Positions 1 through 40,983 of a stretch of DNA of 64,000 nucleotides are shown piece by piece (position 1 is the stretch's first letter; every line of letters begins with the position of its first letter). Location of the stretch: contig CAJINV010000016.1 of assembly GCA_905178155.1 (NCBI GenBank), positions 496,001 through 560,000 of the forward strand. The letters are read 5' to 3'. Source of the stretch: Amoebophrya sp. A120. Lineage: Eukaryota > Protista > Dinoflagellata. A program made the position numbers and the translations under genes. The notes below the pieces were generated by a model, which made no database searches, was not told the DNA's origin, and saw nothing but the letters and a program-made list of their open reading frames with translations.

Positions 1-183
1 GCATGATCTAGCATCACAGATTTTTAGACGGCTTCCTAATGCCTACTCCGCATGAGAAATGCCCTCTCCCCGTAACACAAACTGGACTCCTGTTGCTGGC
101 CATGCATATACAGATTTTTTTGGAATCCAACGGCAGCATTACAAGTTGCAACCTTCCAGACCCAGAAATATTTGCAATGCATA
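1..183. mobile_element. TIR introner family A (partial)
   Basis: Ends cttccagacccagaaatatttgcaatgcata. Confidence 0.8.
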
Positions 184-3100
184 TCAGCATCTCCATCGAC
201 TCGTCATACGGGTTCACGGCCGTCGAGACCGCGTGCGGGCTATGAAATGCAAATATGCCTGGGTCTGGAAGGTTGGAACTTGTAGTGCTAGCTTTGCATA
301 CCCAGGAAATCTGTATTGCATAACCAACAAAAGTCGCAGCCTCTTTTGTACATGCAAAGCCGCAGCTTCTCATGCGGGTTTCCTATGAGAAAGCGTTCTG
401 AAAAGTTGTCATGCTGTGTTGCATTCGCAACTGTTGCAATCATCCACATTTTAGCATCACAAGTTTCCGCACCCAGACATATTTGCATTTGATACGGGCC
501 CGGTTGCTGCGCCCCGGGCGGTGCTTTCAACTCCAGATTCATCTGTCGCGGTACGATCCCGCGCTTATTGGTATACGCGTGCTTGATGAACTGTTTTTGC
601 GCGTGCACCATCGCCAGCCCGTTCGGCCCTTCCGGTGCGTTCGGCGGTAAGTAGACCGTGATCCCCTCCATTTCCCCGCAGTAGTGCTCGCCCTCTTTCC
701 CCGGAACTAGGAAGTACCGGTAGGGGTTTAGGACTAACCGCGGGTTCAGATTTTGGATCATCGCCTGGTGCAACTCTTCATCAAATGCAAAAATGTCTGG
801 GTCTGGAAGAATCTGAGACTTGTCATGCACAGTTTGCATGAGCCATGATGTCTGTGATGCATGCCCTAGCATCACAGGTTTATTGAGGGACTCATGATGC
901 CTATTCCGCACGACAAATGCCCTGTCCGCGTAGCAAAAATTAGATTCCTTTTGCTGCTCATGCAACACAAATTTTTTAGACATCCAAATGCAGCATCACA
1001 AGTTGCATTCTTCCAGACCCAGACACTTTTGCATTTGATATTCTTCATCCGACATCAGCGCCTCCTTCACCATGCCCTGGATCAATTTCTCGAAACTCGA
1101 CTGTTTCCTTCGCAACATATTGCGAGGAAAAATCCCCCCTCCCCATAATGGACATTTGTGATGCTGGATTTGTGTACACAAATCGACTTGTCTTGCTAGA
1201 AGGCCAAGAGACGCAGTTGCGGCCTAAATTGTAGACGGTTTGTTATGCTGTTTCCCACTTGCAGTGGCCTCCTGTGATGCTGAAGATGCAAGGTTTTCCC
1301 ACGTCAGCGAGCACTACAGTCCGTGTCCGCATCTTTTGCCTTCTAGCATGACAACATGATTTGTGGAAGCAAATCATGCTACACAAGTCGCCGTTTTAGG
1401 ATGAGGAGGGGGGATCGGGATTTTTCATTTTGATACAACACCAGCGCTCGTCGCAGAAAATCCCGAACGATGGTGATCAACTCGGAACTGGATCGGAGCT
1501 TCACCAAAGCGGTCAACGTCCGTTGTAACAGCTTCGCGTTTGGATTCGCTTCGTCGTTGGCGCAAACTTCCGATTCTATATCAAATGCAGAAGTGTCTGG
1601 GTCTGGAATAAACTTGTGATGCTAAGTGGCGTAGCATGGGGAGGCCACAAGTGCTGGCTCAGCATGACAAATTTCATCTGAGCTACTAGGTGTTGCCTAT
1701 TCTGCATGACAAACTGCGTCTCCGCATGACAGAAAAGCGCGGCTCTTGGGCAACGTGCATGACAGATTTAAGAGTCATGCCAGACAAGCATGACAAACGT
1801 GCATTCTTCCAGACCCAGACATTTTTACATTTGATATTCTAGTTGCTTCTTCAACTCCTTCTTTTTCTTCGCCGCTTCCTTCTTTTTCTCCTGCTCATCG
1901 GAGGTGGTTGTGGAAACGCCAGACGATTTCATCTTCACAGTGGATTCCGTCCCAGATTGCCCCGCGGAGGAGACGTCTTCGTCCATGTTGCACGTGAGAA
2001 AATACTGCGTGGGTTTTCCGCGGTCGAAAAAGATTGTGTCAGGGAAAAGGACCCGATGGACCATCTGGCTCATATGCATTGCAAAAGTATCGCACTCGTA
2101 GTGATCGCAGTTATGCATTACAAATGTAGTTGCTTTAAGGTAAATCCGCATTACAAATTTAATTTGTAATGCTGAGCCAGTTTGTATTGCGATTCATACG
2201 AGTACGATACTTTTGCACAGGATAGTTCATCTTTTCCACCAGCTCGTTTTTTCGGGATGCGCCGGTAGCCTGTAATGGGTCGTGTGGTTTGTGTTGCAAG
2301 ATTGGGATTGCAAGATTTTGGAACTACATTTTGAAGAAGATAAAACTCAAACCAACGTGTCAGTCATGCACATTGAGACACAGAGCGAGAATACCACCAA
2401 TCATGCAGACCAATAAATGATTTTTCACATGAGACAAAATCAAAAAATCATACGTCGTCACTTGCCCCAGCCCTGCTCGCGCCGCTTGGGTCGACAACGG
2501 TTGAGAGTTGAATATCGTACGACTGTCTCCCTCGTTCGTCTTTGTAAAGCGTGTATCAAATGCAAAAATGTCTGGGTGTGGGAGGATGGAGCTTGTCATG
2601 CTAAATCTGAATCATGTAAAAATCTGTGTTGCATGATTACCAAAAGCTGTCCACGTGTGACCTAATCGGGATGCAGTTTTTTATGCAGCAGAATAGGCAT
2701 CATAGAGAGAGAACTAATCACAGAATCCGTCATGCTATGTCCTACATAGCAGACATCATGGGTCATGGAAAACCTGCATGACAAGTCTGGCACTCTTCCA
2801 GACCCAGACATATTTGCAGTTGATAGCGTGTTGACGCCGACGATCACGGATCCCTTCATCTTCATCATCAGCCATTGCAGGTCACGGTATTTCTGTATTG
2901 CAGATAGAAACTTTGCGTAGTTGCGTCGGTTGTTTATTATGCAAGCATAGAATTCTAATTTTGCAACTTATTTGATGCTGGCATGCAAAACCCCAGTTGT
3001 GGAAGTCGAAGTTCTTATGAACGGCATCAACACGAATTAATACCCTTGCCGGCGCAACCTCCTTCTTGACGACGGTCTTGGATGATTTTGCTGGTGACCC

Positions 3101-17937: not shown

Positions 17938-20900
17938 TCAAAAGTCCGGCACCCGTTGCATGAAGCTCTTCCCGATGGACTTCAGTAGCCTCTGTGCGTA
18001 GTGCGCCGGGTCCAAGATGCTGGGTTGGTACCCGCTCTGCGGATAGTTGAAAACCACCTTCGCGTAGTGCTCCACCTGCTTGTATGGATTGCAAAAATGT
18101 CTGGGTCTGGAAGATTGTAACTTGTCATGCTAAATCCGAATCATGCAAAAATCTGTGTTGCCTGAGTGCCAAAAGCTGTCCACTTTCGACCACGTTGGGA
18201 CGGAGTTTCTCATGCAGGACAGGCATGACAGAGACCTTACAGACTCTGTCATGCTAGGTCCCGCATTCCAGACCTCAAGGAGCATGGAGAACCTGCATGA
18301 CAAGTTTACACTCTTCCAGACCCAGACATATTTGCAATGCATAGCTTGTCCAGGGTGTAGGGTCGGACGTAGTCAATCAACCCGATGCGAATTTGGTTTT
18401 GTTCCGTATTGGTCGGAAAAAAATCAACTTCCTGTCCGCCACCGTCACCGTCATCTTCCCGCTCCCCGACGTCCTCGCCCTCCGTTATGAGAAGTAAGAC
18501 CGAGTAGTCCATCAACTTCATCTTCAACAGAAAAAACGTGTCGTTCCAAATTGCGGTGCGCAGAAAATCCAAATCTTTATCAAGTGCAAAAATGTCTGGG
18601 TCTGGAAGATTGTAGACTTGTCATGCAGATTTTCCATGACCCATGAGGTCTGGAATGCGGGACTTAGCATGACAGACTCTGCGAGGTCTCTGCCATGCCT
18701 ATTCTGCATGAGAAACTCCCTTCCAACTTGATCAATAGTGGACAGCTTTTGGCATTCATGCAACACAGATTTTTGCATGCTTCAGATTTACCATGACAAG
18801 TCACAATCTTCCAGACCCAGACACTTTTGCAATCCATAATCTTCCTTCGATACGGATAAGGGCATGCCTTGGGCCCACTCCCGGAAATTCTGGTCCCACA
18901 GGGTACGCTTCGGAAAATCGATTCTACTCCTCGCAATAGCAGTCGAGGGTCGTGGTGGGGGTGGTCTAGAAGTGATTTCCGTTTCATTTTCTTGCAGGGG
19001 GGCTGATTTTCTTTCCTCTTCTACGGGCGGGGACATCTTCTTCAAGGTAGTTGTGGGAACTTCTTCTACTGCAGCTTGTGGGACATCAATTTTTACGGCA
19101 GTCCTGTTTAATAATATTCCTTTCTTCTCTTCTTCTGCATCTTCATGTTCATGCGCAACGGACGATAGCTGTGTCCCTGGCTGCGGAGTGGATGTTGGAC
19201 CATCTATTTCCTGGTCGTTAATATTTTCTTCATAACGCTGTTGTATATTCGCGTCGATTTTTCCAGCATCAAGCACTACATCTTCGGTTAGTAGAGCGTT
19301 GCTTGCACCCTCCTGGCCTGCTTCCGTGGTAACTACCCGAACTGTTGTTTCGGTTCCTCCGTCTGCGGTAGTAGTTGTGGTGTAGTTCTCGACGTTGGTT
19401 GTAGTACAATTCTCCTGCGCTGTAATACCTTGTGCCTCCTTGTCGAGGACCATCTCTGAAGCTTGTTGTGCTTGGTCATCCGCTGCAAGCAAACGCGGTC
19501 GCGTACCCGTTGTATAATTTCCCATAGCTGTTGTACGCATTTGTTCCTCAACAACTTGACTACTTTCCAATACAGGATGCAGTGAAACATGCTGCTCCGC
19601 CACTCTCGCCACCGCCTTCGGAGCATTAGGAGGTGGATCCACATAGGATTTCTCTACTTCACCAGCCGTACCAAAAGTTGCTGCTCTACTTGCAGGAGGG
19701 GTCGTAGTTGCACTATCTTCCTCCACTATTTCTTCCTCTTGTCTGCGATTTTTCCCGACACCTTTCAGATCAAACGCAAAGGCCTTGTAGTGCTGCACAC
19801 TGCCACGAACTTCTTCTTCTTTCCTCGCCAGAAGACGCGGCCGCGGAACGTCCTTGGTTGTACTATCCTTTGCAGCAGAGTTGATGTTCGTCCTCATGCT
19901 ACTACTCCTCGACATATTTGTTCCGCTTGTTCCGTACGGCAGGTGATCCGCATGATGATCCACCACGCTGTGCTTCAAATTTTTCAATACCATGAAACTC
20001 CGTCGGTTTCTCTTCGGGTAGGATTGGTACACGGAGAAAACGCCGTAGATAGGCGTGAGAATGGAGGGGAAGATGGTACTTCTATTCGTCGTTCTGGTTT
20101 TGTTCGACGGTAGAGCGGCGTCATCATTTATGCCGTTTTTTAAAATTTCTTCCTGTTCGAACAGCGTTTTTGAGTAGTACCACAACAGCGCGTCGTATCC
20201 AAGAAAAAAAGTGTGTACTCAATAAGTGCAAACATTCTTGGAGGAACAGCATCAGAAACGTGCTCTGCATGACAGAGAAAACCTCTCATGCGCAGCTAGT
20301 ACGTGCAAACACGTACAAAACAAACCTCTGATGCATGTCCAGCATGACAAGTGTGAGTGTCTTTCATTTTCTGCAACACAGATTTACATACACTTACACG
20401 GTTTTTTTCTTGCATACGTCGCCTTCCTTCTCAAACCACTTGATTTCCGGTTTGTTCATTTGTTTCAGCAGATATTTTTTGTTCGAAGTGATCAGAAATG
20501 ACGCGCCGGACTTCCCGCCCGTGACCTGAAACGGATCGCACTTGGACAGAGAAAACGCGAATTGCAGGTCCCCGTTGGTCAGAAAGTGCCGCAGGAGGTG
20601 GAACATGTGCGCGTGATAGAACAGCACCTCGAACGAGTGCTTCTTTTCATTCGTCTATGAGAGTGCACCAGTCGCAGTCCCCCTCTTCCTTACTTGTATA
20701 GCATGAAGAACAGCAATACAAACACAAGCACAGCCACAGATGGAGCATATGCATGACAAATGTGTGTACCCAATGTGGTACTATTTTGGACTTCATCCGG
20801 AATTTGTCACGCAAGCAGTGCCACAATGCAGCGACTGGATTAGGATTTCGCATGACAGACGAGGGGGACGAGAGGGAATTGTGCACTGTCATATCGTCCA

Positions 20901-23900
20901 CTCGATCTTGATAGAGGAGTCCGTTTGCTGAAAGAGTTGCGCAGCAGTAGAAGTACTCCCCGCGGCGGAGGCAGTCGCAACAGCCGCTAGGTTCATTTCC
21001 GCATTTTTGAGAGCAGCTGCTGCTCCTGTGCCACCAGCGGCTCCGGGAACAACAGCCATCAAAGTAGACGTCGCATTTGTGTTGCTCGTAGAAGAGGAGG
21101 AGGATTTGAGGGATTTTTTCTTCATCTCAGCCATGGCCTTTAGCGAATGCGCAAACGCGGTGTGGCAGTTGCGTGTAAAGGTTTTCGTGATGAAATTCAA
21201 ATTGTCTTCGAAGTCCTCTGCGTCCGACGTTCTTGCTGCACCAGAAGTGGATCTTGAGGATGTTTGTCCTGCCACGACCTCTTCTAACGTTTGTAACGCC
21301 GGAAAAATCTCCGCGGTGGTAGGGGTCAGCAACTCAGAATCTTTCGGTCGCGCCAGGACCCGTCGGATGCTGTGGCGTTGTTGTTGACCAGAACCCGGTC
21401 GTCCATCTTGTTGTGCAGGAATTCTGCCTGCTTTGTCCACTCGTTGGGCTGCGCGACCTTGTAGTTCTTCCGTGTAGTAATCCTCTGCGCCGACATCGTC
21501 GAGATCAATTTCTGCGCAGAGCACTACTTCCTCATTTTTGTCTTCTTCCTTATGCAAGAACGACCTTGTTGTCGACGAGAAGTTATTTAGGCAGCAGCGA
21601 AAGGTTGGGAAATGGACGGTCGTTTTCGCATAAGATTCTTCGCCGACACTTCTGAGAACTCCTGCCGGTGTCCGCCGTTCTTGCTCTGCAGTCGCAGCTT
21701 CGGCTACTCCGCCTGTGGTCGCTGTACTTCCTCCGCCTGGGAAATTAGTTTTCCCGTCTTTATGTTCCTTCGCCAAAGAATCATTCTGGGATGATGTTGA
21801 TGTTGTTGGTTCTTTTTTTGCTTTTGTAGAATTAGTAGTGCTCGTCATCCTCGTCTTCCGGGCGACATTCAAAAGGGGACACTGCCAGATAGACGACGAT
21901 GCAGTAGTCTTATTATTTCCCGTGCTGGTCGCAAGAAGTTCTTGTAACCTTTTACTGCCCGCCGGTGGATTGTACCCCCCATACACCCTTTTCACTTCCA
22001 TCTGCTCAAACAACTTTCGACTCAGCAACGCACTGGCCAAGATCGAGCCCCAATCCTCCTGCTCATACCTTTTGTTCAGGTCCTCCAGCATCTCTTCGGG
22101 CAGATCCTGTGCGAGCAATGTCAAGCCATTCACCTCAATTTCAATCGGGTCTTCCGGGAAACTCTGGCGCGAGAGCCGGATTATGTCATCTGTTTGCGCT
22201 TTACTTTGTTCGACAGCAGACGGACGCGGCGAGGTGGAGGTTAGAGTACTTTTGTTGGTTGCAGCTGGTTCTGCTGCTGCATCTTCTTGTTTCGAAGTTT
22301 TGATGTTATTGCCGACGTCTTGTGCTGCAATTGCAATTCCTTGTTTTTCTATTTGTTTTTCATCTTCAGTGTTGTCCAGGTTTACCTCCCCAATGTCCTC
22401 TTGTTGTTGTTCCGATTCTACGACTGTCATGGCGTCAATCGGCGGCTCTTTCGCAAGCGAGGCTGGGGTAGAAGAAGGAGTAGTCTGTTGCTGGTCCGAC
22501 GATTCTACTGGTGTTGCTTCAACAAAATCAACAACTTTTGGAACAGCAGCTACGCCGGGTACTAATATTACCTCGCCACTTTGCAGCTCATGCCCCTCCT
22601 CTACTTGCTCCTCGCCGGGCTGCACTGCAGTACCTTCTGTCGCAGCCGGGCTGCAGTACCTTCTGTCGCCGGGCTGCACTTCTGTCGCAGCCGGAGCTGT
22701 TCCTGCGGCTTTTTCCCCCTCCGCTGCAAGAGGAAGAGATGATCCAGATGAGTCTACTTGTTTCATGAGCGGTGTCTGCGCATCATCTGCTCCTTTCGCA
22801 GCTGTCGCACTATTGGCTGCCGTCGTGCCACTTGGAGCGACTGCAACAGCCCCAACTTCTGCCACGACTTCCGCTTGATCATGCTCTTGCTCCACCTTGA
22901 GCCCAGCAGATTCGCGAAAAGCTGAGGCATGATCTCGAACACGTTCAGCATCACCTCCCGAGGGCGTTGCTCTCGACGCTTTGGGTGCTGTGTAGTCCTT
23001 CACCAGAGAGCTGGGCAGCTTCCTACTTTCTACTTCGGCAACATCAAACAAGGGAAACAGCAAGTTCCGCTCCCGCACGATGGAATAGGTCTTGGCTTCA
23101 AAAAATTCGAAGGACACCAAAACTTTTTGCCTTGCGAAATGGAAGATGTGGTTTTTGAAGGTGGTGGAGTGAAGCTGTTGTTGTGTGGATGAAACAGTAT
23201 TTGCAGAACGAGGCCCCCCGCCTCCGGTGCAGCAGAGAAAAAAGAAGTTCACAAATTGCACAAACGGCAGTCTCGCCAGCGCCTGTGACAGGTAGTGCTT
23301 TTTCTCTTCTTCAACATCATTGGACTTCAACTTCTTTGTTTTCGTCGTCTCCGGCCCCCGCGCAGTTGTGGAGGACTTATTGTAGAAGTTTTTACTGCTT
23401 TTTGCGCTCTTCCAGTGGATAATTTCGGTCGTCGCAATCGGATGTTCGTCGGATGAAATAAAATTGTAGTCCGCCGCAGTGATCACGTTTTCGTTCGCCA
23501 GCTCCCGCGCGCTAATGCACACCCGCGCAGTCCCGTGCTGAATCACCAGTGTCTGTTTGAAGTTCGGCCGGAACCTCGACGGGTCCCCCCTGTTTTCCAA
23601 CAAGATCGCAGTCTGTGCCGAGGTACTACTACCCCCGGCAGCTATTTGCTGGTTCATTTTGGAGGAAACGGTTGGCTGGCCAGAAGCCGTTAACTGCTCC
23701 GCTGCAGTGGTACTATGGTCGACCTCAACAACAGAAGTCGTACCAGCGCCCGCTGTTCCTCCGAAATGCCCCTCGTTGCTCACCGCCACTAACAGTTGTT
23801 CCTCGGCTCTGTTTGAAGCCGAGGTACTAGAATTTGTGCCCTGCTCTAGCTGCGCAGTCAAGGGTCCGAAGGCTTCGAAAACTAACCACTCGCCAAGAGT

Positions 23901-26900
23901 CAGGTCGAAGAAAGCGCCGACGGCGGTCGTGTTTACTGCGTTGTCAGTACTAGCAGGTTCTTGCTCGTCGTTGTTCTTGTTCTTCCACTTCCTTCCCGCA
24001 TCTTTCACTTTCGAATTTGACGTCCTTTTCGACGTATCGGTGTAATCGCCGCCCACAGTTGGAACTACAAACGAATCGTCTACATGCACCCGCTCATATT
24101 CCGTGACCTGCAGTCCGCTCGCCTGTACGCTCCCGGCCGGAATGGGGAATGGGTAGGAAAACCCGACTCTTTTACTGAGCGACGATGAAAAGGCTCCATC
24201 AAGCTCAAATTGACCTGGGTCAAAACCACTTACAACTTCGTCGTCCGCATGCTCGTCCTCCCCCGAACAAAAATCAAACGTCCTCTTCTCGTTGAAAGGC
24301 TCTTTGCCCCGCGGTAGGGACGCGTGCGCGGACAAGACTACCCGGTTGACGCTGCCGTCCAGGCCCGCGCTGTCTTCGTGATTAATGAGAAACAGAGCGA
24401 CGGGCAGTCGCTGCGCCAGGGAAAAATTGAGCGTATGTTTGGAAGTAGATGAACTTGTCACGGTGCTTATGCTGCTGCCGTTGGTACTATTCCCACCCTC
24501 AACATGTTCTTGGCGATCAAACGGCAACAACCTCCTTTCCAACTGCAATTTCTTGGAATACTGCACGGAACCGACGCAGCCAAGGAGCGAGCGGTGGCTG
24601 GTTTTATTTCCGATGGTTTCACCAACATTTATGTCCTGTGGTGGTAGAGCAGCAATAGAAGAAGCCGATCCTTCTTCTTCTTTGTCCCGCTGTTCCACTG
24701 GCCGTAGGATATTCTGCTGGACTAGAAAGTCGTACTCCAAACGAAAAATTAAGGCAAAAAAATCCGAGGCGTTGGAAGGGTTTCCATTTGCATAAAGCTA
24801 ATTTTTTTTGAAACACAAGAATCAAAATCAATCGTAGGACTAGGACTTTACTAAAATTTCTTTCTCATCGTTTGATCAACATAACCCCTAACTGCGCCAA
24901 ACAAGGAAATAGCATCTGCAACGCCTGGAACCAATTTCGTATTAGCGCGTGGCACAAGCGAATCGCCCACTGCAAAACCTTCTTCATCTTTCTCAACTGG
25001 CCAAAACCGCCCTGGCCCATCAGATAAATCGTCACCCCGCGGCACACTGCTTTGTCGGAGGAATCAAAGACACACAGCGACCGGGTTTTCTTCGCTTCCG
25101 CTTCGCTTATCAACGCTTTTCGCATAGACAAAAGCTCTTTTTGCTTCTTCTCTTCCAAAGTTTTGTTCCTCAAACCTTTACCGTAGAAAAGAGCGTTCAG
25201 AGGCGGTCCTGACGGAAGTAGATGCTGGGAAGAAGTCGGAGACGTTTTCGCAGTGCTGAGCGGTGGTGCGCCAGCCTGCTGTTCTGGGACGACCGGCATT
25301 GTTTTCGTGGCGGATTGTAGTGCGGTTTCGGCAAAGTCCAAATGGTCATGATCGTCAGAAGAAGTGGAGTCTGAACTTGTTGCAACCGGCAAGTTCATCT
25401 TCACGTCGTCTTGGTCGCCAGCTCGAGTTATTGCCGTTCTTTCATCAGCATCATCATTTTTCTCCCGCCCGGTGCTATCCAGAGCCTTCCTACTTGTCGT
25501 TGTGCCAGCAGGTGGTCCTCGTGTAGCAGGCACGTAGGACTCGGGCAAGATCTTATGGGCTGCAAAAGTATCGCACTCGTATAAATGCATATACAAAAAA
25601 TTTCCTCAGCAAGAGAAATGGAATTTGTCATGCTGATTTGCCTTGGCAACAAGATTTGTATTGCAAGACTTGCATTTATACGAGTACGATACGTTTGCAC
25701 AGGATAGATCTTGAAATCCCGCAAGGTCCCTAGCAACTGCGAGCTGTCGCCCCGACACAAGTCCGCGTAGAAAGTATGGATGGCAAAAATGTCTGGGTCT
25801 GGAAGAGTCATCATGTTTCTGCATGACACAGAAGGTCTGGCATGGACGCTCTAGCATCACAGGTTTCGAGAAGCTTCCGCAATGCCGAATCCGCATGACA
25901 AATCCCCCATTTTGGTGACAGAAAGTGAGCAGCTCGTGCTGCCTGTGCATCAGAGATTTTTGTGTGTTCTGAAATGCGCATCACAAGTTACATCCTTCCA
26001 GACCCAGACATTTTTACACTTGATAGAAAGTCCTCGCGGATAAAACTGGTGCGTTGGAAATCCGGGACAAAAATTGAATCGACTGCGATGGGCAGTCTTT
26101 TATCAAAGGAATTCTATCAAATGCAAATATGTCTGGGTCTGGAAACTTCTAATGCTGAGTTGTATATAGTGAACTCTCTGTAATGCACAGCCAAGCATGA
26201 CAAATATTTGCGTTGCTTAGTGTTTCGCTTTCCGCATGACAAACTGCGCTTTGCATGACAAACAAAAGTGTCTCTTCGTGGACACGCATCACAAATTCTT
26301 CAGTCATGCCAGACAAGCATAACAAACCTTGCATCCTTCCAGACCCAGACATATTTGCAATGCATAAATTCTGGCCTTCTTCAACTGCTCTTCCGGCTCC
26401 CGGGAGGTCACCCCGCCCTGCTCCACCACCACGAGACTTGGTTTAAACTCGATGATTTTGCTCGTGATCGACTGACATCAATTGCAAATATGCCTGAGTC
26501 TGGAAGATTCTGAGACTTGTCGTGGACGTTTTGCATGAGCCATGATGTCTGTGATGCATGCCCTAGCATCACAGCTTTTTTTTGGGGCTTCTTGATGCCT
26601 ATCCCGCATGACAAAGACAAATGCCTTCTCCGCGTAGCAAAAAGTGGACTTTTCTTGCTGCTCATGCAACACAGAGTTTTTTCGAATCCAAAGACAGCAT
26701 CACAAGTTGCAGTCTTCCAGACATCCAGGGATATTTGCACTTTATAACTGAAAGTGCTGCTCCCGCTGGGTGCGGAGAATATCGAGCGATGTGAGGAGAT
26801 TCTTCTGAAAATCGAAGCTGCCCTTACCGAGCAGGAGAATCTTCTTGGAAGTTGTAGAGTTTTGCTTGGTTATAGTTACTCGTAGTTGGGACCCCGTCGT

Positions 26901-28118
26901 GTTGAGGTTGTTGCGCAGAACTTCTACTCCATTGCCATTCACCGCAACAGAAGTTGTTCCATTAATGGACATTGAACCTCCTGTGCCCGCCTGGTCGTCT
27001 CCGTTGTTCTGTTGCTGCATAAAATCGGTTACGAAGTTCGCTGTCATGGCGAAGCCCTCGAACAGGCAGGAGTCTTGAATTTTTTTCCCCGGATCGTTGC
27101 ACTTCTTAATTTTCACGTAGCTCAGCACGTCATTCGCGAGGATACAGGACTCCCGGACACGCTCTGCCTCGAAACTCGTAGTGTAGGTTAGTTGCCGGAA
27201 AGAATTTTTCTGGTCACCAGCGGTTAGGATCTTCTTGCTTTGCTTCGTTCCACCAAGAACTGCGCTATTCTCGATTTTTTCCCTCCACGCTCGCTTTTCC
27301 CTGCTTCTGGGCGGAAACCACGCTCGCTTGACGTTCGTCGCCAGCACCGGCACCAAGGTCACTTTCGCTACTGCCTGCTCGGCCAGCTTGCAGATCGTGT
27401 ACACCAGTTCCTGCCGTTCTTGATCTGACATACCACAAGCTCCTGCAGCGTTAGATTCTTCGACAACGGTGTTAGGTCTTGTTTCTACTGGAAGTGTAGT
27501 AGAAGTGCCCGGGGTCGTTCTCGTCGTCGAAGCTGCGGCTAGTATAAAAATTCCGTGCTCTTTCCCAAAACATTTTTCGTACACCGAATTGACCAAGTGC
27601 AAAGACTGCTGCTCCGAGTACAGTAATTGCTGCTTCTCCTGGAAATTATTCGCCGCCGCACCATTGCCATTGGTTGCAGCCGCCGTTGCGGAGTCGTGCA
27701 GAAGCTGTGCCTGTTTGATATTATTGCCACTACTTCCTCCTGCCGCACCTACGCCGCCCGGCTGCCCGACGAGGACCCTGGTGGCGAAAGAACTACTACC
27801 AGCCTGGGACGACGACACCACATTCGGCGTGACGCCCGAGAAAGCAGCGGCTCCACCTCCTGCGCTAGTAGAACTCGTGTTTAAAAATCGGCTGTTGTAG
27901 CAGTACTCGCACACCCGGGAGCTCTCCTCGTCGGGCCTCAAGTTCGGCACGCGGTGGTCGCTGCAGCGTCGGCAGAAAATGTTGCCACAGAACCGACAGT
28001 GGTGCTTCCGGGTGAAGAAGGAGAAACGGACGCCGCAACGAAAGCAGTAAACGGACTTCTCGTCCGGCACCCAAACCGGGGCCGGATTCGACGCGGAAGC
28101 CGCGGCGAGAAGATTCAT
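17938..28118 (-). CDS. FAB1: 1-phosphatidylinositol-3-phosphate 5-kinase FAB1/PIKfyve homolog, multi-exon
   Basis: N-terminal FYVE domain (WVPDEKSVYCFRCGVRFSFFTRKHHCRFCGNIFCRRC...RVCEYC) and a CCT-like segment (YVKIKK...DSCLFEG). PIPK motifs TGGKSGASF...YLLKQM, FDLKG, MDYSVLL and GLIDYVRPYTLDK|QVEHYAK...PSILDPAHYAQRL. TGA at 17938-17940. Confidence 0.92.
18083..18343. mobile_element. TIR introner family A
   Basis: TSD gcttg; opposite orientation to the 18578 copy. Confidence 0.9.
18578..18838. mobile_element. TIR introner family A
   Basis: TSD atctt. Confidence 0.9.
20196..20416. mobile_element. TIR introner family E
   Basis: TSD cgtcg. Confidence 0.85.
20656..20893. mobile_element. TIR introner family F
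   Basis: tatgagagtgcac / gtgcactgtcata; TSD tcgtc. Confidence 0.88.
25554..25706. mobile_element. TIR introner family C
   Basis: TSD gatct. Confidence 0.88.
25775..26025. mobile_element. TIR introner family A
   Basis: TSD gaaag. Confidence 0.9.
26115..26366. mobile_element. TIR introner family A
   Basis: TSD aattc. Confidence 0.9.
26476..26745. mobile_element. TIR introner family A (CAT left end)
   Basis: TSD actga. Confidence 0.85.
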
Positions 28119-28769
28119 GGAAGGGAGAGGTGGCACGGACCGTGCTGGTGCTCTTGCAAAAGCATTTTATTTAGGCGCTGCTGTATAGCAGCCGTTGGTG
28201 ACGGCGATTCGCACTTCTGAAGGAGGAGCTGCCGATGTATTTATAAAAAGATCATATGCGTTCATCTTCTACATTATTTATCAATTGCTGATGAAAATAG
28301 GTATCAGCGAGCAAGTCCTCGCTTGCAGCTTCATACACAGATATGCATGAGGACACACTAGCTTTCGAGCTGAAGTACACGATGGCCCCCTGAGGCAGAT
28401 CTTCGTTCTCAAATGATGCGCAGCGCCGCAACCAACAACATGAAAAGGATCAACCAGTAGTCGTGGAAAGGGCCGCCCTAGCCTTACACTTGCACCGAAA
28501 CACGAGAACGACCGAAGCAATACGCGGAACACATGCGCCTTCACCATGACGATGATAGGGCGATCGACGTAACTTGCGAGAGATGACGCACCACGTCCGC
28601 ATGATACTTGCACCCACGCTCTGCGATAGCAGAAAACATCGCCGGGATAGCTATTCCTTTAAGCCTGCACGCCGCACCACGCCCACGCAATCGTTGCGCG
28701 CTGCGACAGCAAAAGGCAACGGTGAGGCAGTTGCTCCGTCATCCACGCACCGTACGTAGGTAGGCAGCG

Positions 28770-30899: not shown

Positions 30900-33800
30900 C
30901 CATCGTCCCGATCGCGCCCCATAGAAGTTTTTTGCATAACCTAATTTTCCCATCCTCAAACTGTTTTGTTTTTCGACTGTTATCCTGACGGATTGGTGGA
31001 TGGTATTTCTGATTCGGGCCTTATGCCGCGTCAATCACCGCCTGCTCTTCCGTTGTGGCGTTTAACATGCGCTCCCGCAGACTATCCGCATGACTGCCCT
31101 ATCAAGTGCAAAAATGTCTGGGTCTGGAAGAGTGTAGACTTGTCATGCAGATTTTCCATGACCCATGACCATGAGGTCTGGAGTGCGGGACTTAGCATGG
31201 CAGACTCTGTCTGCGAGGTCTCTACCATGCCTATTCTGCATGAGAAACTCCGTTCCAAATTGGTCAAAAGTGGACAGCTTTTGGCACTCATGCAACACAG
31301 ATTTTTGCATGCTTCAGATTTACCATGGCAAGTTGCAATCTTCCAGACCCAGACTACATTTTTGCAATTCATATGCCCACTCCCGATCCGATACTTGGGC
31401 TCGCGGTGGAGATTTTCTTCGGGACGGAGGGCATCTGGCTCTGGGAAACGGCTTATCCGGGTGAAAAATGGGTCCCACACTCCAAAGTCACGCTGCCAAA
31501 TCTGCAAGACAAATGCAAACCCCGACGTTTTGGTCGTGTCGCATGACAACTTTGGCTCTGTCTTGCTGGGAAAGATTTGGGCACGAGCTAGTCCAGCCGC
31601 ACCACAAATTGGAATTGCCCACTACATCCTGATAGATTAGAAAATCAGAATTTTTTCTCAAACACCATTGAAAAAGAACGGAGCTGCTGCGCATGACATA
31701 CACTCTCCGCATGTAGATTTACATGATACATCTGGGGTGTGGACGTCTTTTACTTCGGATAAGGCTTCCTCAAAAGCGACGGCATCTGAACCAGAGCTTC
31801 CTTGTGGGCTGTCGGACTGATAGTGATGGGTTTACAAGTTTTGATTTGAGTACTTTGTTTGTCCTACATCACAAACATCGTTTGTTTTGCATCAGTACGC
31901 ATCACAAATCAAATCTATACTGGTGGTTGGATCTCTGACACTCTTGGCCTTTCCGCGTAGTACGAATCCAACTTAAGGATATCCTGTAAAAAAGTAGTAT
32001 CTCACACAACTTGTAGCAATTGCAATACTGCGTGACAAATCTCATATCTTAGGTGCAGCAGCATCACAAATTCCATTTGTTCTCATGCTAAGCTAATTTG
32101 TATCGCAATTCTTACTAGGAGGGTATGATACTTTTTCTTAGGATACGTGAAGAAGTTTGACAATTGCTCGAACAGAGTCCCTTGTGATCGGCAGATATGC
32201 AAGGCAAATTTGCTGAGTTGAGCCATGATTAGATTTTGTTCACCAGGTATGTTTACTTTCATTCCATCTTGTATTAATTCACATACTCCCTTATGCACTT
32301 TGATAAATGCATTTTCAGACGTGGTCCTGGTGTGGTCCCTAGGTTGCTCTTATGCAAATCTCAAGAACAAATGCTCCGACCAACTCAGCCATATCAACGT
32401 CCGCTGGATAATCACCCTGCGTGAAGTTGTCGTAGTAGTTCAGCACCATGAAGATTTGTCGCTTGAAGTCCCGCAACGCCACTTTCTTTTGCTCTGTATA
32501 GAAATTTTTGATGTTTTTTATGTCGACGGTGTTGTTCTATCTTGGCACGAAACATGATTGAAAATCCGCATGAGAAATCACTCTTCCCTAGGTGCATTTT
32601 GCAACACAAATAATTTTCATACATCTCTAGTACAATAGAATACCGTCCATCTTCTCCTTCATTCGCTTCGATTTATTCTTCGCGACGTCGTAGTGCACGA
32701 CATACTCATACCACAAGCTCATCGCGGCCTCATAGCGGTGCGCCGAGTACCACAGGATCATGACCGCCACACCCATCAGCGCCAACCCAAACGGCGCCAG
32801 CCCGACCTGTTGCGTGGAGTCGTCGTTTTGCTTTTCCTCGGCCGCTCCTGCTGCCATCGTGGAGTTCTATCCTGTGTAGAAACTACGACAGCAGTCCAGC
32901 AATTGAAATTTTTGTCGGTAAGCATCTGCAAATAAATGTTTCTCATGTAACGCAGCCACATAAAAAGCATTTCCTCAATGCTATCCTGAAATTTGTGATG
33001 CTAGGGTCAGGATGAGGCGATCCACATGTGATGGTGATGGTAAGGTTGCAGCTGCACTACCTAAGTTTTAAACACGACCGTACTACGAGCGTAGCAAACT
33101 TGTCATGCGCGACATTCAAAGGCTGTTGGCTTGTCTAGCAAAATCCTAGTGTAGTTGACTCTAGAGAGAAGACGTCGTCGTGTCTTTACACAGGATAAGT
33201 TCGTTGCCGCCGTCGCGTTTGTAACCACTGGCGGTGCGGGGGTAAGTGTGACACCATAGAAGTCACGGGGCTTCTCGACCAGGCGGATCATCCCGGAGGC
33301 AAAGATCTCGTGGACCGGCGCAAAGTCGATGAAGACAAACAGAGCGCCAAACACGAAGAGGCAAACACCGGTCAGCAAACCTATTTTTGATTCACATTCA
33401 ACAAGAGGAGTCTTTTCACGATTTTTGTGAAGATGCAAGGTCACGCACAACATGCCGAGGAGTTTTGTCATGCCTAAATGCGATGTGAAGTCGAAAGAGT
33501 TCAACAAGCCTTTCGGCTTTTTCAATTTCATTTTCCGCTACAGGCACTACACTCATAACTACCTTTCCTCGGGTGGAAGAACAAGCCCTGGAAATCGATC
33601 GCCCCGACATCCGACTTATCAAATGCAAACGCGTCTGGATCTGGAAGATTGCCAGGTTTGTCATGCATATTTTGCATGACCCAGAATGCCTGTAAAGCAT
33701 GACCTAGCATCACATATTCTTAACGGGCTTCCTTATGCCCATTCCGCATGAGAAATGCCGCTCTTCGCGTAGCATAAACTGGACTCCTCTTGCTGGTCAT

Positions 33801-36800
33801 GCAACACGGAAGTTTTTAATATCCAAAAGCAGCATCACAAGTTCTTGCAACCTTCCAGAGACCCAGACATATTTGCAATGCATAGGACTCCTCAAACCGC
33901 ACGATCTCCACGTCGTGCGGCAGCGTGCGACTGGGTTCGTACCCGTACGCCTCTGCCTGCGACATCTGCCACTCGTCCGCGCCTATCTCGAGCGAGCGCC
34001 GCCGTTGCCGGGCCATCTTCACCGCGTTCTTCGTGCGCAGGACGCACACATTCCTGATTTCGTCTGGATAGAAGTAGAGCAGGCGCGTCTCGTAGATGGG
34101 CAGAGCACGGACGTAGGAAAGATCCACCTTGTACTGTTTCTCGTCGTCCTCATCCCCGTTTTCAAACATGGAAGCGCGCGCGGCGTTGGACTGGGATTTG
34201 CATTTCGATCTGCATCTTGTCTTACTTCTGCCTAACAAAGCTCATTTCAGATTCGAATCCTGCAAAAATCGATGACAGAAAATTCGATCATCCAAAATCC
34301 TGAACGAAGCGCTTTTTACCTGCGACGCCGTCACACTCGCCCTTCTGGAATCCCGGGCTTTTTTGTTCGACATGGACTGCGAGCCTGTGTCCTTTGCGGA
34401 ATCGATTAACTTCTTCACGTCCTTGGAGAGACTGTGGTTTTGCAGCTGCTATGCATTGCAAATATGTCTGGGTCTGGAAGGATGCGAAATTGTCATCCAC
34501 ATTTTGCATGACCCGTAACGTCTGTGATGCTGGTGCTAGCATCACAGATTTTTTGAGAGCTTCTTGATGCTAATTGCGCATGAGAAATGCCCTCTCCGCG
34601 TGCCAAAACCTGACTCCTCTTGCTGCTTATGCAACACAGATATTTTTAGAATCCGCAGACAGCATTACAAGTTCTACTCTTCCAGGCCCGGACATATTTG
34701 CAGTTGATAGCTGCGCGTACGCTTCCGGATCTTCACGCATCAGCTCCTGCTCCTTCTCGTAGATTTCGAACGCCAAATCCTCCAAATCCGTCCCCTATGC
34801 ATTGCAAATATGTCTGGGTCTGGAAACTTGTAATGCTAAAAGTGAATGAGAGGCCCACGGCAATACGGAGCCAAGCATGACAAATTTTTGGGCTCGTATG
34901 TGTTGCGTGTTCCGCATTTCAAATTGCGTTTTTGCATGACAGGTAAGAGGACCGCTTCGTGCCCATGCATCACAGATTCTCGAGTCATGTCAGATATGCA
35001 CGACAAATGTAGCAATCTTCCAGACCCAGACATATTTGCATTTGATATCCCCTGCGGCTGCTCGATCATGGATGCCGGCGCCTCGCAGACGTGCCCATAC
35101 AGTGGGTCGACTGCAGCGAGGCCTTTGGAATGTTCCACGGAGGCGTCCTTGATGTACTCGGACTGGTCCTGCTCGCGCAACGGGAACCAGAGCAGGTAGT
35201 ACACGGCGATGATGTAAAAGAGGAAGGGCACGTAGGAAGCGGAGGCCCGCATGACAATCAGGACCCCCTTCGTATCCTCAGCAAAAACTTCCCCTCCACC
35301 CCAGAGTTGTAATGCAAATGCACAATGACAGGAACGCTTGTAATGCGCATCCCCATGAAAGGCATTTCCACTCGTGATTTGGCATTTGTAATGCTGTAAA
35401 CAGGATAAGCGCATGGATTTGTAATGCCGCTGTCCTTTCCAACCAGAACTACACTGCGTACTGCAACCTGTCATGCGTGACTGCCAAAGCTTCTGGATTT
35501 GTGTTGCGAAAGCCTCATCTTGACTCTGGTGGGGGGACGTTTTTACCCAGGATACTTCGGCTGGCACTCCCCGTTCGGGCAGTCCTGCACCAAACCGTCC
35601 GGGGTTTTGTTCAGGTTCGGGTCGTAGCCGAAGTTTTGCATCAGGACGAAGGGGACAAACTGTGCGGGGAGCTCGAGGAATTTAGGAATGAAGCTTTTGC
35701 ACATCATGTACTGGGCTTCCCGTCGCTTTCCCGAGAGAAACTCGTCGTAATCCACCACGTCGTTCAACATGGAGTCAAACAAAAAGTGGCTGCCCTGCGC
35801 CAGACCCATGAAGACCGCCTGCATCCCGAGACTACTCATTTTGGCGTCGTACTTGAGGACGAAGCCCATGTTCAACCACACCAAAGCGTACAGGATCGCA
35901 CCCAGGAAGAAAGCGCGGAACTTCCCGATGCGGTTCGACAGCGGCTTCCAGAACGTGGGGACCGAGATATTGAGAGGAAAAATAAATCCCCCCTCCCCAA
36001 ATCGAAAGGGTATGCTTCCGAAAATTTGTGCTGCAGATTTCTGACCACAAATCCTGTCTGTCTTGCGAGACGGCAAATCCAGGCTCTCTGCCACTCTATA
36101 CGGGCGATTTGTAACGCTGTAAGGACTATAGGGCAGCCGTCTACCATGCTAGGCGCCTACACCAAAAGGCCCCTAACTAGGCTGGCTATCTGCGTGCGGT
36201 CCTCTACTGCAAAACAAATCTGATTTGTGTACGCAAATCGAGCATGACAGATTTCCTTTTCGATATGGGGAGGGGGGATTTTTCCTTTTGATACGAGATG
36301 ACCGCAACGAAGGCCATGCCCACCAGCACCGTGGCGATCGCAGAGCTCGCTTATCCTGTGTAAAAACGTCCCCACGCCATAGTTGTCATGCAACTCTGCA
36401 TGCGTAAAATGTTTCTCATGCGGAGCCCCATGAGAAGCGTTTTCTAATGCGGTTTTGAAATTTGTCATGCTCCAATCAGCATGAGCTACTAGATCTGTAA
36501 TGCTGCTGAACTTGCTCAAATAGCACTACACTACGCGTCCAAATTTGTCATGCCAAACAACCAAAGCTGTGAGATTTGCTTAGCAGATTTCCCATGTTGA
36601 CTCTGGTGTGTGGACGTTTTTACAACACAGGATATCGCTTCAAAATTGTTTTCGCCCACCAGCCAGGTCATCACATACGGGAGGACGATGAAGGGGAACC
36701 GCGCCCCGACCGCTTCGATGCACTCGGCGACTATCAAATGCAGAAATGTCTGGGTCTGGAAGAGTGTAAGCTTGTCATGCAGGTTTTTCATGACCCAGGA

Positions 36801-39800
36801 GGTCTGGAATGCGGGACCTAGCATGACAGAGTCTGAGAGGTCTCTACCATGCCTATCCTACATGAGCAACTTCCTCCAAACTTGGTCGAAACTGGACAGC
36901 TTTTGGCACTCATGCAACACAGATTTCTGCATGATTCGATTTTACCATGACAAGTTCCAACCTTCCAGGCCCAGACATTTTTACATTTGATAGCGACGAG
37001 GAGCAAGCGAAAGGGGGCGTTGAGCAGGGAGCTGATCATGTTCGGGATGATGTCGTTCGTTTTGAACTCGTATGCATTGCAAAAATGTCTGGGTTTGGAA
37101 GATTGCCAGGCTCGTCATGCATATTTTGCATGACTCCTGACGTTTGTGATGCATGCCCTAGCATCACAGATTTTGCGCGGCCTTCCTGATGCCTCTCCCG
37201 CATGAGAAATGCCCTCTCCACGTAGCACAAATTGGACTTCTCTTGCTGCTCATGCAATACATTTTTTTTTAAGAATCCAAAGACAGCATCACAGGTTCCA
37301 TCCTTCCAGACCACCGAAACATATTTGCAATGCATAACTCGTACGGCTCCACGCGTCGCTTGCAGCACTATCCTGAGCAAAAACGCCCCCAGACCAGAGT
37401 CAAGATGCGAAATCTGCTAGACAAAGCAGCCAGCCTTCGTTGTTCCGCATGACAAGTTTGGCCTCGTAGTGTAATCCTGTTGAGCTAGCTCCAGCAGCAT
37501 CACAGATCTAGCCCACTATGCTGGTTGGAGCATTACAAATTCCAACGCACGACTAGAAACAAAACGCTTCAAATGGGGCTCCGCATGACAAACATTTTGA
37601 GCATGCGGATTTGCATGACAATTATGGGGTGGCGACTTTTTTCCTCATGATAAGCACTCCTTGAAAAACTTCTTCTTCTTCAGTTGCGACCGCAGCTGCG
37701 TCTCCTTCTCAGTTGTGGTGCCGCGAATCTGGTCCTGCGGAATCCAAGTCGTGGAACCGAACAAAGTCTCCTTCAGTTCCGCAACGAAAATGAGGAAGTT
37801 CGCGCGCAGGGTTTCGTCCGACAACATCTCGCCAGTATGAGAGTACAGCACACCTCCCCCTCCCCCTCATTTGTATGGCATGAACAGCAATACAAGAGCG
37901 TCAGTCGGAATGCGAATGCAGGTTCTGCATCACAAATTTGTGCAAAAGTGTAGTGCTATTTGGGCCGCTGCCAGAACTTGTCATGCGAATAGTGCCAAGC
38001 GGCAACTTGTGAAAAATTTCCATTTCGTGTTTTGCATTACAAACGAGGGGAAATAGGGGGACGAGTTGTGCACTCTCATACCCGGTGTTCTGGGTGTAGA
38101 GGTAGTTCTCGGATAACCGGTAGTCCCGTTCGGGCACGGTCTGCAGAAAGTAGTAGAGCGGGAGGGAATATCAAATGTAAAAGCGTCTGGGTCTGGAAGA
38201 TTAGAACTTGTCATGCTAAATCTGAATGATGCAAAAATCTGTGTTGCGTGAGTACCAAAAGCTGTCCGCTTTTGACCAAGTTGAGAGGGAGTTTCTCATG
38301 CAGGAAAGGCATGATAGAGACCTCAAAGAATCTGTCATGCTGGGTCTCGCATTCCAGACGTCATGGGTCGTGGAAAACCTGCATCACAAGTCTTGCATTT
38401 TTCCAGACCCAGACATTTTTGCATTTGATAGGGAAAAGGAGAGCAGACCGAGGACCAACACGTTAAACCCGTGGGACAGACTATCGCAAGAAAAAACTGT
38501 TTCACTGTGAACTTGTGATGCAGAAAATGGAGCGCAGAACTATTTGTCTTGCTACACCTGCAAGACATTGGATTTTCAAGCGTGTTTTCCCGTGGGAAAC
38601 GCGCATGGCAAATCTTCTGTGTCATGTGTATACAAACTTGTGATGCGGTTCTTGCAAAATCATCACAGTGACACAGTTTTTTCGTTGAATACAGACAGCC
38701 GCTGTTCGCGGACCCGTCGCAGTCCGGCCCCCACTTCATCATCCCCACCATGGCCATGCCCATGATGGAAATAATTGTCCGCATCATGAACATGTATCCC
38801 CACAGGCGGTCGCGCTCCTTGTAGTGCGGCGTCAGTTCGTTCCCGAAGGCCTCCATCGGGAGCATGGTCAGGGTATCGGCTAACTTCGAAACGATGTGCC
38901 AGAACCCGAAGTAGAAGGCAGAAAAGGAGGAACCCAGATTCGGCGGAAAAAAACCCAGCACAAACGCGAGCGGGGTGAACCTTTTTTTTTGGGGGACGAA
39001 GATTATAAATGTTTTTTCTTTTTGGTTTTTTTTCCCGGAAAGATCATGTCAAGCAGGTAAACCTAATTTATGCACGAATTCATCAAATTCTTTGCTGGAC
39101 GAATGCAGTACAATAGTACTTGCTTACGCTAATATCCACGTAGAAGTGAGAAGTACCATACGGCGACTCGCAAGAACGGTTTTCTCCGCCCCTGTTTACT
39201 CACCCAGTTGTCCGTGATGCGCGCAAACCAGGGATCCGTAAACGCGTCGATGAGCACCCCTAAAATCATGAACATGCTCATGATGCCGATGTTTGCCTGC
39301 GGGTAGTCGTCCGTGTAAAATTTCTTCATGTACACCTCCTTGGAGAACTGCATGACGCGAAACTATCGCAGAGAAAAAACAAAAAGCAGGCAGGGCATGT
39401 AGTTTGTAATGCAAAAATAAATACACAGAAAAATCTGTCATGGGCGGATGCACATAGCATGCTGTTTAGGATACGCGCTATGTGCTGTTATCTTTGCATT
39501 ACAAATGTGCCCTGCCTGTTGTTTTAGATGTGTGATAGAAACCCCGCGATGCTCATGCCGAACAGAAAGATCGTCAGCCGCGGCAGCCTATCAAATGTAA
39601 AAGTGTCTGGGTCTGGAAGCATGCAACTTGTGATGCTGCGTCTGGATTCTACAAAAATCTGTATTGCATGAAAAGCAAAAGAGGTCCAGTTTTTTCCACG
39701 CCGAGAGGGCATTTCTCATGCGGTACAGGCATCAGGAAGCCCTCACAAAATCTGTGAAGCTAGGGCATGCATCACAGACATCAGAAGTCATGCAAAATGT

Positions 39801-40983
39801 GCACGACAAACCTTGCATCCTTCCAGACCCAGACACTTTTGCATTTGATACAGCCGGCCCTGCCGTTTGCCGTTCGCGTTCATCGTAGCGCCCCCCATCA
39901 GGTCTCCCTGCTGCACCCGCGAGTTTCGGTTGTCGAACTTGGCCGCAGGCTTATTGTGAGGAAAAATGCCCCCACCCCAGAACTTGGGAACATTTGTGTT
40001 GCAAACCTTTCCAATGGAACCGCTCGCCGTCTTGCATGTATCAGCATCACAGATCTTCAATCGTGAATAGCGAAAATTTGTATTGCAAAAGATCCCAGCA
40101 ACAGCGCCGTTTGTCATGCAAGCGATGCTGTATACGACTAGACTCCGCATCAAAAAGATTCATAGTCCTTTCATGCATGACAAAAAGTTTTCATTTGGAA
40201 ACCTCGCATCACAAATTACTACAACTTTCGGGGTGGGGGCATTTTTCATTTTGATAGGGGTACAGGTCGCTGTACGGAATCGCGGACAGGTTCACGCGGG
40301 AGGAGAGCTTGTACAGCTCCTGTTTTCTGGTCATCAGAGCGCCCTTGGAGGCCACGATATCAAATGTAAAAATGTCTGGGTCTGGAAGATTCATGCTGTT
40401 TTTGCATGACACAGAAGGTCTGGCACGGAAGCTCTAGCATCACAGGTTTCGAGAAGCCTCCGCAATGCCGAACCCGCATGAGAAATCCCCCATTTTGATG
40501 ACAGAATTGAGCAGCTTTTGCTACCTATGCATGAGAGATTTTTCTATGTTCGACAATGCGCATCACAAGTTCACATCCTTCCAGACCCAGACATTTTTCC
40601 ATTTGATACACGAGGTGCTTCAGCGACTCCGGAATCTCCTTCGAGTCCTCGTGCTCCGGCGGAGCGGGGTTGTATCCTGAGTAAAAACGTCCCCATACCA
40701 CTCAGAGTCAAGATGGAAAATCTGCTGGACAGATCAGCCAACTTTGGTTGTTTCGCATGACAAGTTTGTCCTCGTAGTGTAATCCTGTTTGGCTACTTTA
40801 GCAGCATCACAGATCTAGAACATCATGCTATTTCTAGCATCACGAATACCAAAACACGACTAGAAAAAGCTTCTCATGTGGCTTCGCATGAGACACTTTT
40901 TTGGCATGCAGATTTGCATGACAACTCTGGGGTGGGGATGTTTTTACTCAGAATAGTTTGCCTCCGCCCTTCATGGTCGGCAT
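30900..40983 (-). CDS. MFS_2/GPH (Na+/melibiose-symporter-like) transporter with a long C-terminal extension, about 25 exons; 3' end approximate
   Basis: Motifs IDAFTDPWFARITDNWVSKQGRRKPFL, MLPMEAFGNELTPHYKERDRL and SMLNDVVDYDEFLSGKRREAQY. The frame is restored across consecutive introners. ATG at 40983. Confidence 0.8.
31100..31373. mobile_element. TIR introner family A
   Basis: TSD tgccc; very similar to the 18578 copy. Confidence 0.9.
31454..31761. mobile_element. Degenerate TIR introner family D
   Basis: TSD cggct/aggct. Confidence 0.7.
32868..33197. mobile_element. TIR introner, D-related
   Basis: tatcctgtgta / tacacaggata; TSD agttc. Confidence 0.85.
33617..33884. mobile_element. TIR introner family A
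   Basis: TSD cgact/ggact. Confidence 0.88.
34450..34709. mobile_element. TIR introner family A
   Basis: TSD gctgc. Confidence 0.9.
34796..35047. mobile_element. TIR introner family A
   Basis: TSD tcccc. Confidence 0.9.
35273..35554. mobile_element. TIR introner family D
   Basis: TSD cttcg. Confidence 0.88.
35968..36293. mobile_element. TIR introner family B
   Basis: TSD cgaga. Confidence 0.9.
36352..36634. mobile_element. TIR introner family D
   Basis: TSD tcgct. Confidence 0.9.
36732..36992. mobile_element. TIR introner family A
   Basis: TSD gcgac. Confidence 0.9.
37071..37336. mobile_element. TIR introner family A
   Basis: TSD actcg. Confidence 0.9.
37369..37652. mobile_element. TIR introner family D
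   Basis: TSD agcac. Confidence 0.85.
37836..38080. mobile_element. TIR introner family F
   Basis: tatgagagtaca / tgcactctcata; TSD degenerate. Confidence 0.8.
38169..38430. mobile_element. TIR introner family A
   Basis: TSD gggaa. Confidence 0.9.
38482..38691. mobile_element. TIR introner family E
   Basis: TSD cagac; similar to the 9078 copy. Confidence 0.9.
39364..39537. mobile_element. TIR introner, E-related
   Basis: TSD gaaac. Confidence 0.8.
39589..39850. mobile_element. TIR introner family A
   Basis: TSD cagcc. Confidence 0.9.
39952..40256. mobile_element. TIR introner family B-variant
   Basis: gaaaaatgcccccacccc TIR; similar to the 59431 copy; TSD degenerate. Confidence 0.85.
40358..40608. 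mobile_element. TIR introner family A
   Basis: TSD cacga; similar to the 25775 copy. Confidence 0.9.
40673..40955. mobile_element. TIR introner family D
   Basis: TSD ggttg/gtttg. Confidence 0.88.

Follow-up and report, generated by a model that had tools for sequence, protein, structure and literature searches.

How can one and the same element be removed from transcripts in which it lies in either orientation? This question is raised by a FAB1/PIKfyve-like gene of Amoebophrya sp. A120, which lies in a stretch of 64,000 nt (contig CAJINV010000016.1, positions 496,001 to 560,000; hereafter the window) and contains two inserts of the same subfamily in opposite orientations. The features of this gene are:

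17941..28166, minus strand: FAB1/PIKfyve-like host gene, with a FYVE exon at 26742-28166 and PIP5K at the 3' end; the join over 24797-24868 is putative
18083..18343, minus strand: introner element in the minority orientation, with TAT…ATA ends and a terminal helix of ~48 bp
18078..18082 (left copy) and 18344..18348 (right copy), no strand: 5-bp target-site duplication of the 18083 element
18079..18344, minus strand: predicted intron of 266 nt (18083 element), +2 U at 18343 and predicted branch A (-7) at 18085
18345..18573, minus strand: PIP5K-domain exon between the two inserts
18578..18838, minus strand: introner element in the majority orientation
18573..18577 (left copy) and 18839..18843 (right copy), no strand: 5-bp target-site duplication of the 18578 element
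18574..18839, minus strand: predicted intron of 266 nt (18578 element), +2 U at 18838 and predicted branch A (-7) at 18580

The inserts, their host genes and their families

The first-pass annotation described the two inserts as near reverse complements of each other and placed both in the FAB1 kinase domain, and both statements hold. Alignment of 18083-18343 with the reverse complement of 18578-18838 (261 nt each) gave 88% identity over the whole element; without the 50-nt ends, the interiors are 86% identical in the opposite sense and 50% in the same sense. The intervening exon matches Pfam PF01504 (PIP5K) with an E value of 4.8e-5, under the curated cut-off. It is 100% identical to the annotated Amoebophrya sp. 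A120 protein P0001, which carries PF01504, and 48% identical to the A25 protein P0002. P0001 starts at 22430. Since the restored ORF reaches 24797 and the FYVE exon is located at 26742-28166, both beyond this start, the public model of P0001 is probably a split or truncated version of the FAB1 gene.

The window contains 58 such elements, 50 found by a scan for the ends and the duplication, six via repeat families and two decayed ones via an annotated protein. All are bounded by inverted repeats of the TAT…ATA type and by a 5-bp duplication, which is perfect in 41 elements, has one mismatch in 12 and two mismatches in three, and is decayed in two. The terminal repeat consists of TAT (58/58), seven looser bases and a run of A (A at positions 11-13 in 52-55 of the 58). 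With terminal inverted repeats (TIRs), target-site duplications (TSDs) of fixed length, short size and occurrence in both orientations, the elements have the traits of MITEs. They also have those of A120 introners, namely non-canonical boundaries, the TAT repeat with its A-run, a direct repeat at the boundary and families spread over the genome; the inserts are the published introner elements of Amoebophrya A120.

All host genes had been assigned to the minus strand. In line with this, 57 of the 58 elements lie inside restored minus-strand ORFs of at least 100 aa once the element and 5 nt are removed, and the 58th (2554) scores as minus-strand coding. The orientations reported for 31100, 36732, 62513 (18578 sense) and 38169 (18083 sense) were all correct, and we found three further members of the subfamily, 49521 and 51748 in the 18578 sense and 2554 in the 18083 sense. 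Family edges required a local score of 60, shuffled interiors peaking at 35.5; the similarity of family members is far beyond chance. The subfamily members, and the gene which is the main source of evidence on the cut positions, are listed below.

31100..31373, minus strand: same subfamily, 18578 sense, in the MFS transporter gene
36732..36992, minus strand: same subfamily, 18578 sense, MFS gene
38169..38430, minus strand: same subfamily, 18083 sense, MFS gene
62513..62774, minus strand: same subfamily, 18578 sense
49521..49782, minus strand: same subfamily, 18578 sense; the only one of the 58 elements to read GT…AG, in the 4+1 register only
51748..52009, minus strand: same subfamily, 18578 sense
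2554..2825, minus strand: same subfamily, 18083 sense
31024..40983, minus strand: MFS transporter gene (protein P0003), with 22 element introns and five GT-AG introns
31454..31761, minus strand: element of a second family; a duplication mismatch at position 5 gives an upper bound of the cut
32196..32410, minus strand: decayed element, duplication 0/5, fold z -0.83, TAT…ATA kept, removed as element + 5
31980..32145, minus strand: decayed element, duplication 2/5, removed as element + 5

The GT-AG introns 32494-32643 and 31817-31920 (minus strand) start with G-TAT and end near ATA/ATC-AG, and may be old elements which have drifted to canonical ends. Elsewhere in the window, an SLX1-like gene (5376-9343, minus strand) has a GIY-YIG and a weak SLX1_C match and encodes 958 aa after removal of four elements, and a tandem array with internal inverted repeats is present at 55476-57276 (351-bp unit, 5.1 copies, 91% matches).

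A pattern scan of a closely related assembly revealed the same families in 132 loci (479 kb), with one protein 97% identical. From 395 unique locus elements 283 were kept; 97 were dropped because they had no strand call and 15 because of more than one duplication mismatch, and the strands of the 283 come from a codon model trained on the window, not from RNA. When copies from the window and the loci were counted by orientation to the inferred transcript, the ratios were 83:50 in the large family, 14:9 in the subfamily of the 18083 and 18578 inserts, and 23:9, 14:12, 16:8, 6:5 and 5:6 in other families. Some families show a mild orientation bias. Subfamilies rooted at 26476, 2073 and 1579 gave 35:14, 22:9 and 12:2 (uncorrected p 0.004-0.03), and such a bias may mark an interior feature which affects splicing.

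Four longer copies of 457-697 nt (L010:4306-4762, L015:571-1051, L016:3862-4492 and L046:765-1461, given as locus and positions) have the same ends, perfect duplications and unrelated interiors with a largest ORF of 136 aa; possibly they are captured sequence or remnants of larger elements. No autonomous partner with the same ends was seen in the window and the 479 kb of loci, and a search of viral contigs for the elements gave no match. We saw no target-sequence preference in the window and the loci. Intron phase is skewed, phase 1 occurring in just 3/57 in the window and phases 0/1/2 being represented by 128/61/94 of the 283 locus elements (p 7e-6). The spacing between neighbouring elements peaks at 30-80 nt and is below 30 nt in only 10/338, which suggests clustered insertion together with a minimum exon size.

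Removal as element plus 5 nt and the position of the cuts

In the transcript-guided annotated proteins, the element introns equal the element plus 5 nt in 26/26 cases (22/22 in P0003 and 4/4 in P0001, the annotation of both being derived from assembled transcripts). This includes 36732 and 38169, which lie in opposite senses in the MFS gene, and P0001 corresponds to the gene model minus element + 5 at both 18083 and 18578. Comparison with the A25 orthologue points to the same length: the alignment is gap-free at both junctions only when element + 5 is removed (score 411 vs 379-400), and lengths of element + 2 and element + 8 were rejected by the fit to this orthologue.

Further support comes from an RNA-like contig set (X1), the RNA status of which is guessed. 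Its gaps of 234 and 1495 nt match the predictions exactly, and the 1495-nt gap covers nine elements and four GT-AG introns, one family being present in both senses (31454 vs 32868 and 35273). One X1 piece begins at 18838, which excludes other donors for the 18578 element, and altogether X1 supports the removal of 18578, 20196, 20656 and nine more elements. Among the X1 pieces listed there is none with an RNA junction for 18083; removal of this element is supported by the annotation, by the orthologue and by the longest X1 pieces listed, none of which is a retained piece of 512 nt. In the raw RNA runs X8 and X9 just 4 and 3 partial reads, respectively, matched.

It had been considered that each orientation might use a cryptic GT-AG pair of its own. 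No such pair fits: all 41 GT/GC-AG pairs that preserve the frame within 40 nt of the two inserts score 398 or less against the A25 orthologue (411 for the model), and none yields P0001. GT-AG in any element + 5 register is found in 1/58 window elements and GT/GC-AG in the 4+1 register in 9/283 locus elements, so the GT/GC donor and AG acceptor of U2 introns are not a property of the elements. A preference for +1 G or AG was likewise not seen (AG in 22/283). Both orientations are thus removed alike, with the same net length and no use of GT-AG.

Where the 5 nt are cut can be deduced from mismatched duplications, which reveal the copy that the exon retains. According to the annotation, the exon has four or more of the upstream bases at 40673, 31980 and 32196, and the paralogue P0050 and an internal repeat indicate the same for L051:6344 and L051:5751; for L051 the representative search returned paralogues and no annotated spliced protein. 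Not more than four are retained at 31454 according to the annotation, and at L069:3773 according to the A120 orthologue. This upper bound is the weaker side, consisting of two cases, with L069:3773 lying within an indel-rich patch. In-frame stops rule out that no base is kept in two cases and that none or one is kept in two others; they never rule out two or more. It is therefore likely that the cuts fall 1 nt outside the repeat on its 5' side and 4 nt outside it on its 3' side, and that the intron has the form N-TAT…ATA-NNNN. For the intron 18079..18344 the length is shown and the register is taken from the other copies. According to Table S4 of PMC7789003, T is the second base in all nine predominant A120 splice-site types, which may also reflect donor scoring by the aligner.

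Polar ends and candidate mechanisms

From the two orientations the first-pass annotation had concluded that splicing is independent of polarity, and this conclusion is not supported. An element plus 5 nt cannot be divided equally about the stem, and so the cut must be polar. Further, the two ends are not equally conserved. In the window the 5' TAT is present in 58/58 elements and the 3' A(-3) in 58/58, and all four deviations are in the last two bases. The prediction made from the window was that constraint acts on the +2 U, on a purine at +3 and on the -7 A of the intron, and it was then tested on the independent loci. T1 (intron +2 U) is conserved in 283/283 elements, its mirror A in 278/283 (five changes); A(-3) at the 3' end (intron -7 A) is conserved in 283/283, its mirror T in 276/283 (seven changes). 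This gives a mirror asymmetry of 12:0 (p 0.0005). A probable +2 exception with a G-A start is L066:6663, a strand-unassigned copy in a 586-aa minus-strand ORF, with which the ratio becomes 12:1 (p 0.003); if L097:12 and L131:64 are also counted as exceptions, the worst case is 12:3 (p about 0.035, calculated by hand). As a control, the inner repeat positions 9 and 11-13 deviate alike at both ends (54/49, 37/35, 22/20 and 17/15). Given the inferred register, +2 is U and +3 is a purine in all 283 assigned copies (281 A, 2 G). End conservation is thus polar relative to the transcript.

The changes at the third T unpair the -7 A and are nevertheless tolerated, which argues that the identity of this A matters and not its pairing. 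The U2-pairing branch-site consensus is yUnAy. In the elements U stands two bases upstream of the -7 A in 130/283, and this consensus is not apparent. All five GT-AG introns of the MFS gene start with GTA, and A is found at -7 in 3/5 of them. The clearest copies with changes in the first two bases of the 5' TAT, L066:6663-6973 and L079:2657-2916, both have G at +1, as if the canonical G compensated.

The reading we favour, with moderate confidence, is that MITE-like introners are cut out as element + 5 in either orientation by a polar spliceosome of the U2 type, which reads the +2 U and a predicted branch A at -7. Since the 5' and 3' letters of an inverted repeat do not depend on the strand that is read, a polar machine would be served both ways: the repeat would supply the +2 U and the predicted -7 branch A on both strands, and four bases of the upstream duplication would be left in the exon, resulting in the intron N-TAT…ATA-NNNN. 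The start N-U-A would then represent the canonical GUA donor minus its G, and the 3' site could be measured at a fixed 7 nt from the A, so that AG would not be needed. In the second splicing step the +1 and -1 guanines form a pair, and thus a joint loss of both is coherent. The terminal helix could stand in for the undetected U1 snRNA by helping to bring the ends together, without being essential; in A120, U2, U4, U5 and U6 were described and U1 was not detected (PMC7789003).

More tentatively, we suggest that the A120 spliceosome follows a code of only two letters, namely the +2 U and a branch A located precisely 7 nt before the 3' end, and does without the +1 G and the AG. TAT together with the 5-bp duplication would write this code on both strands, and an insertion into any target sequence, whatever its orientation, would at once be a clean intron. 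If true, the spliceosomal code would here be a minimal one from which the guanines of both intron ends are missing; this would account for the tolerance of tens of thousands of insertions irrespective of target sequence, and junctions which aligners leave ambiguous could be placed by rule during annotation. The polar signature can be tested: it has a fixed register and two exact coordinates, the +2 U and the -7 A. It bears on a matter left open in print, namely how the approximately 65% non-canonical A120 introns are removed without a detected U1 snRNA.

An alternative which we regard as rather unlikely is that a non-spliceosomal endonuclease-ligase or a separate RNP, of the kind proposed for the nonconventional introns of euglenids, makes staggered cuts, one 1 nt ahead of the helix and the other 4 nt past it, and depends on the same two polar bases. 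The strong terminal helices in both orientations (~48 bp, fold z -11.9 for the 18083 and -10.6 for the 18578 element) would suit it, as would the lack of a preference for +1 G or AG, the lack of a branch consensus and the undetected U1; euglenid introns, too, have an offset stem, and they leave as circles (PMC11282704). However, the invariant bases are those of the spliceosome (+2 U, a +3 position that in assigned copies changes to G, and an A near the 3' end), and TIR introns of Fritillaria are spliceosomal (PMC11282704). Selection on the helix is also not evident: G·U does not exceed A·C on the sense strand (51 vs 60 in one comparison and 213 vs 233 in the other), a comparison with limited power, as family members have inherited many of their arm differences, and the terminal duplex of the sense strand is the more stable one in 29/58 and the less stable one in 28/58. 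Moreover, the decayed 32196 copy, the duplication of which no longer matches at any base, does not exceed shuffled sequences in its fold and is still removed. This shows that a strong stem is not required, although a short local helix may still help. Of the proposal that removal relies on symmetric features, the part locating the signals in the TAT/ATA ends is retained, and reliance on the stem is not supported.

Less probable still is that removal by the spliceosome uses a branch further upstream and that the -7 A is a protein contact or a determinant of the second step. The poor context for U2 pairing at -7 is in favour of this, and most copies have a run of U near positions -15 to -19 that might be a pyrimidine tract; against it, this U-run and its mirror A-run decay symmetrically. 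Since the interiors differ wholly among families and are inverted with orientation, a branch upstream would need to be located afresh in every family.

We consider it very improbable that a symmetric, polarity-blind mechanism reads the stem and the TAT/ATA ends only. Both orientations are common in each large family and the net length removed is equal, which is in its favour, but the indivisible overhang of 5 nt and the unequal mirror positions speak against it, the asymmetry largely refuting it already, and insertion in both directions also occurs with ordinary spliceosomes (bioRxiv 10.1101/2020.10.14.339549). Finally, cryptic GT/GC-AG pairs for each orientation or excision of the elements at the DNA level have next to no probability, even with 41 candidate pairs and a guessed RNA status of X1, since those pairs fit the orthologue less well than the model does, none yields P0001 and the X1 start at 18838 bars other donors for the 18578 element, while the DNA-like run X5 has even depth and contigs which continue into elements and X1 also skips GT-AG introns and has zero depth over 27038-29705.

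Relation to known introns and transposons

Ginger DNA transposons have TGT…ACA termini and an integrase-like transposase. This identity was rejected for the elements described here, which have TAT…ATA and not TGT…ACA termini, and one A120 family without Ginger termini is mentioned in PMC12130899.

The introner elements of A120 were described by Farhat et al. 2021 (PMC7789003), and the mechanism was left open. The likeness is close: the same organism, TAT followed by seven loose bases and an A-run, direct repeats of 3-5 nt at the boundaries, non-canonical ends and a MITE-like nature. The sections of its text and supplement which we consulted contain no statement on orientation to transcription, on a fixed register or on the +2 U/-7 A polarity; its Fig. 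3 and Fig. S23, the legend of which gives repeats '1-5' nt from splice sites, may show part of the register. In the freely accessible texts on Amoebophrya searched, we found no statement on orientation or register. In A25, repeats start with TTA and the predominant introns with TT (PMC7789003); judged from these letters, the A25 geometry, though different, would likewise place U at +2 and A at +3.

In Polarella glacialis and Aureococcus anophagefferens, introners derived from DNA transposons with TIR and TSD occur in either orientation, biased to one (Roy et al., bioRxiv 10.1101/2020.10.14.339549). As both-way insertion has been published for these introners, it is no surprise here. They carry or recruit GT/GC/GA and AG, however, which restricts their target, whereas the A120 elements need neither +1 G nor AG and have no such preference. 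Thus, the observation of the first-pass annotation is known in kind: the A120 elements are published, and introners inserted in both directions are published elsewhere.

Other comparisons concern the manner of removal. The euglenid nonconventional introns resemble the A120 elements in having a terminal helix offset from the cuts and TSD-like repeats, but they are characterized by CAG/CTG at +4..6 and -8..-6, a purine/pyrimidine rule at the junction and a circular product, in contrast to TAT at +2..4 and ATA at -7..-5 in A120 (PMC11282704). Neither CAG/CTG nor the purine/pyrimidine junction is seen in our end logos and duplication composition. The constant A of the A120 elements is reminiscent of Entamoeba invadens, where the branch A lies at a fixed short distance from the 3' site, at -8, but GT-AG and a full AYURAY are kept there, whereas the A120 elements fix the A alone (bioRxiv 10.1101/2022.06.08.495308). 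The introns of Fritillaria borealis are likewise derived from MITEs, have TIR, TSD and non-canonical ends, and are removed by an adapted spliceosome; they differ by mostly AG-AC/AG-AT ends in a TAC exonic context, and use of the spliceosome is shown there (PMC11282704), while for A120 it is proposed.
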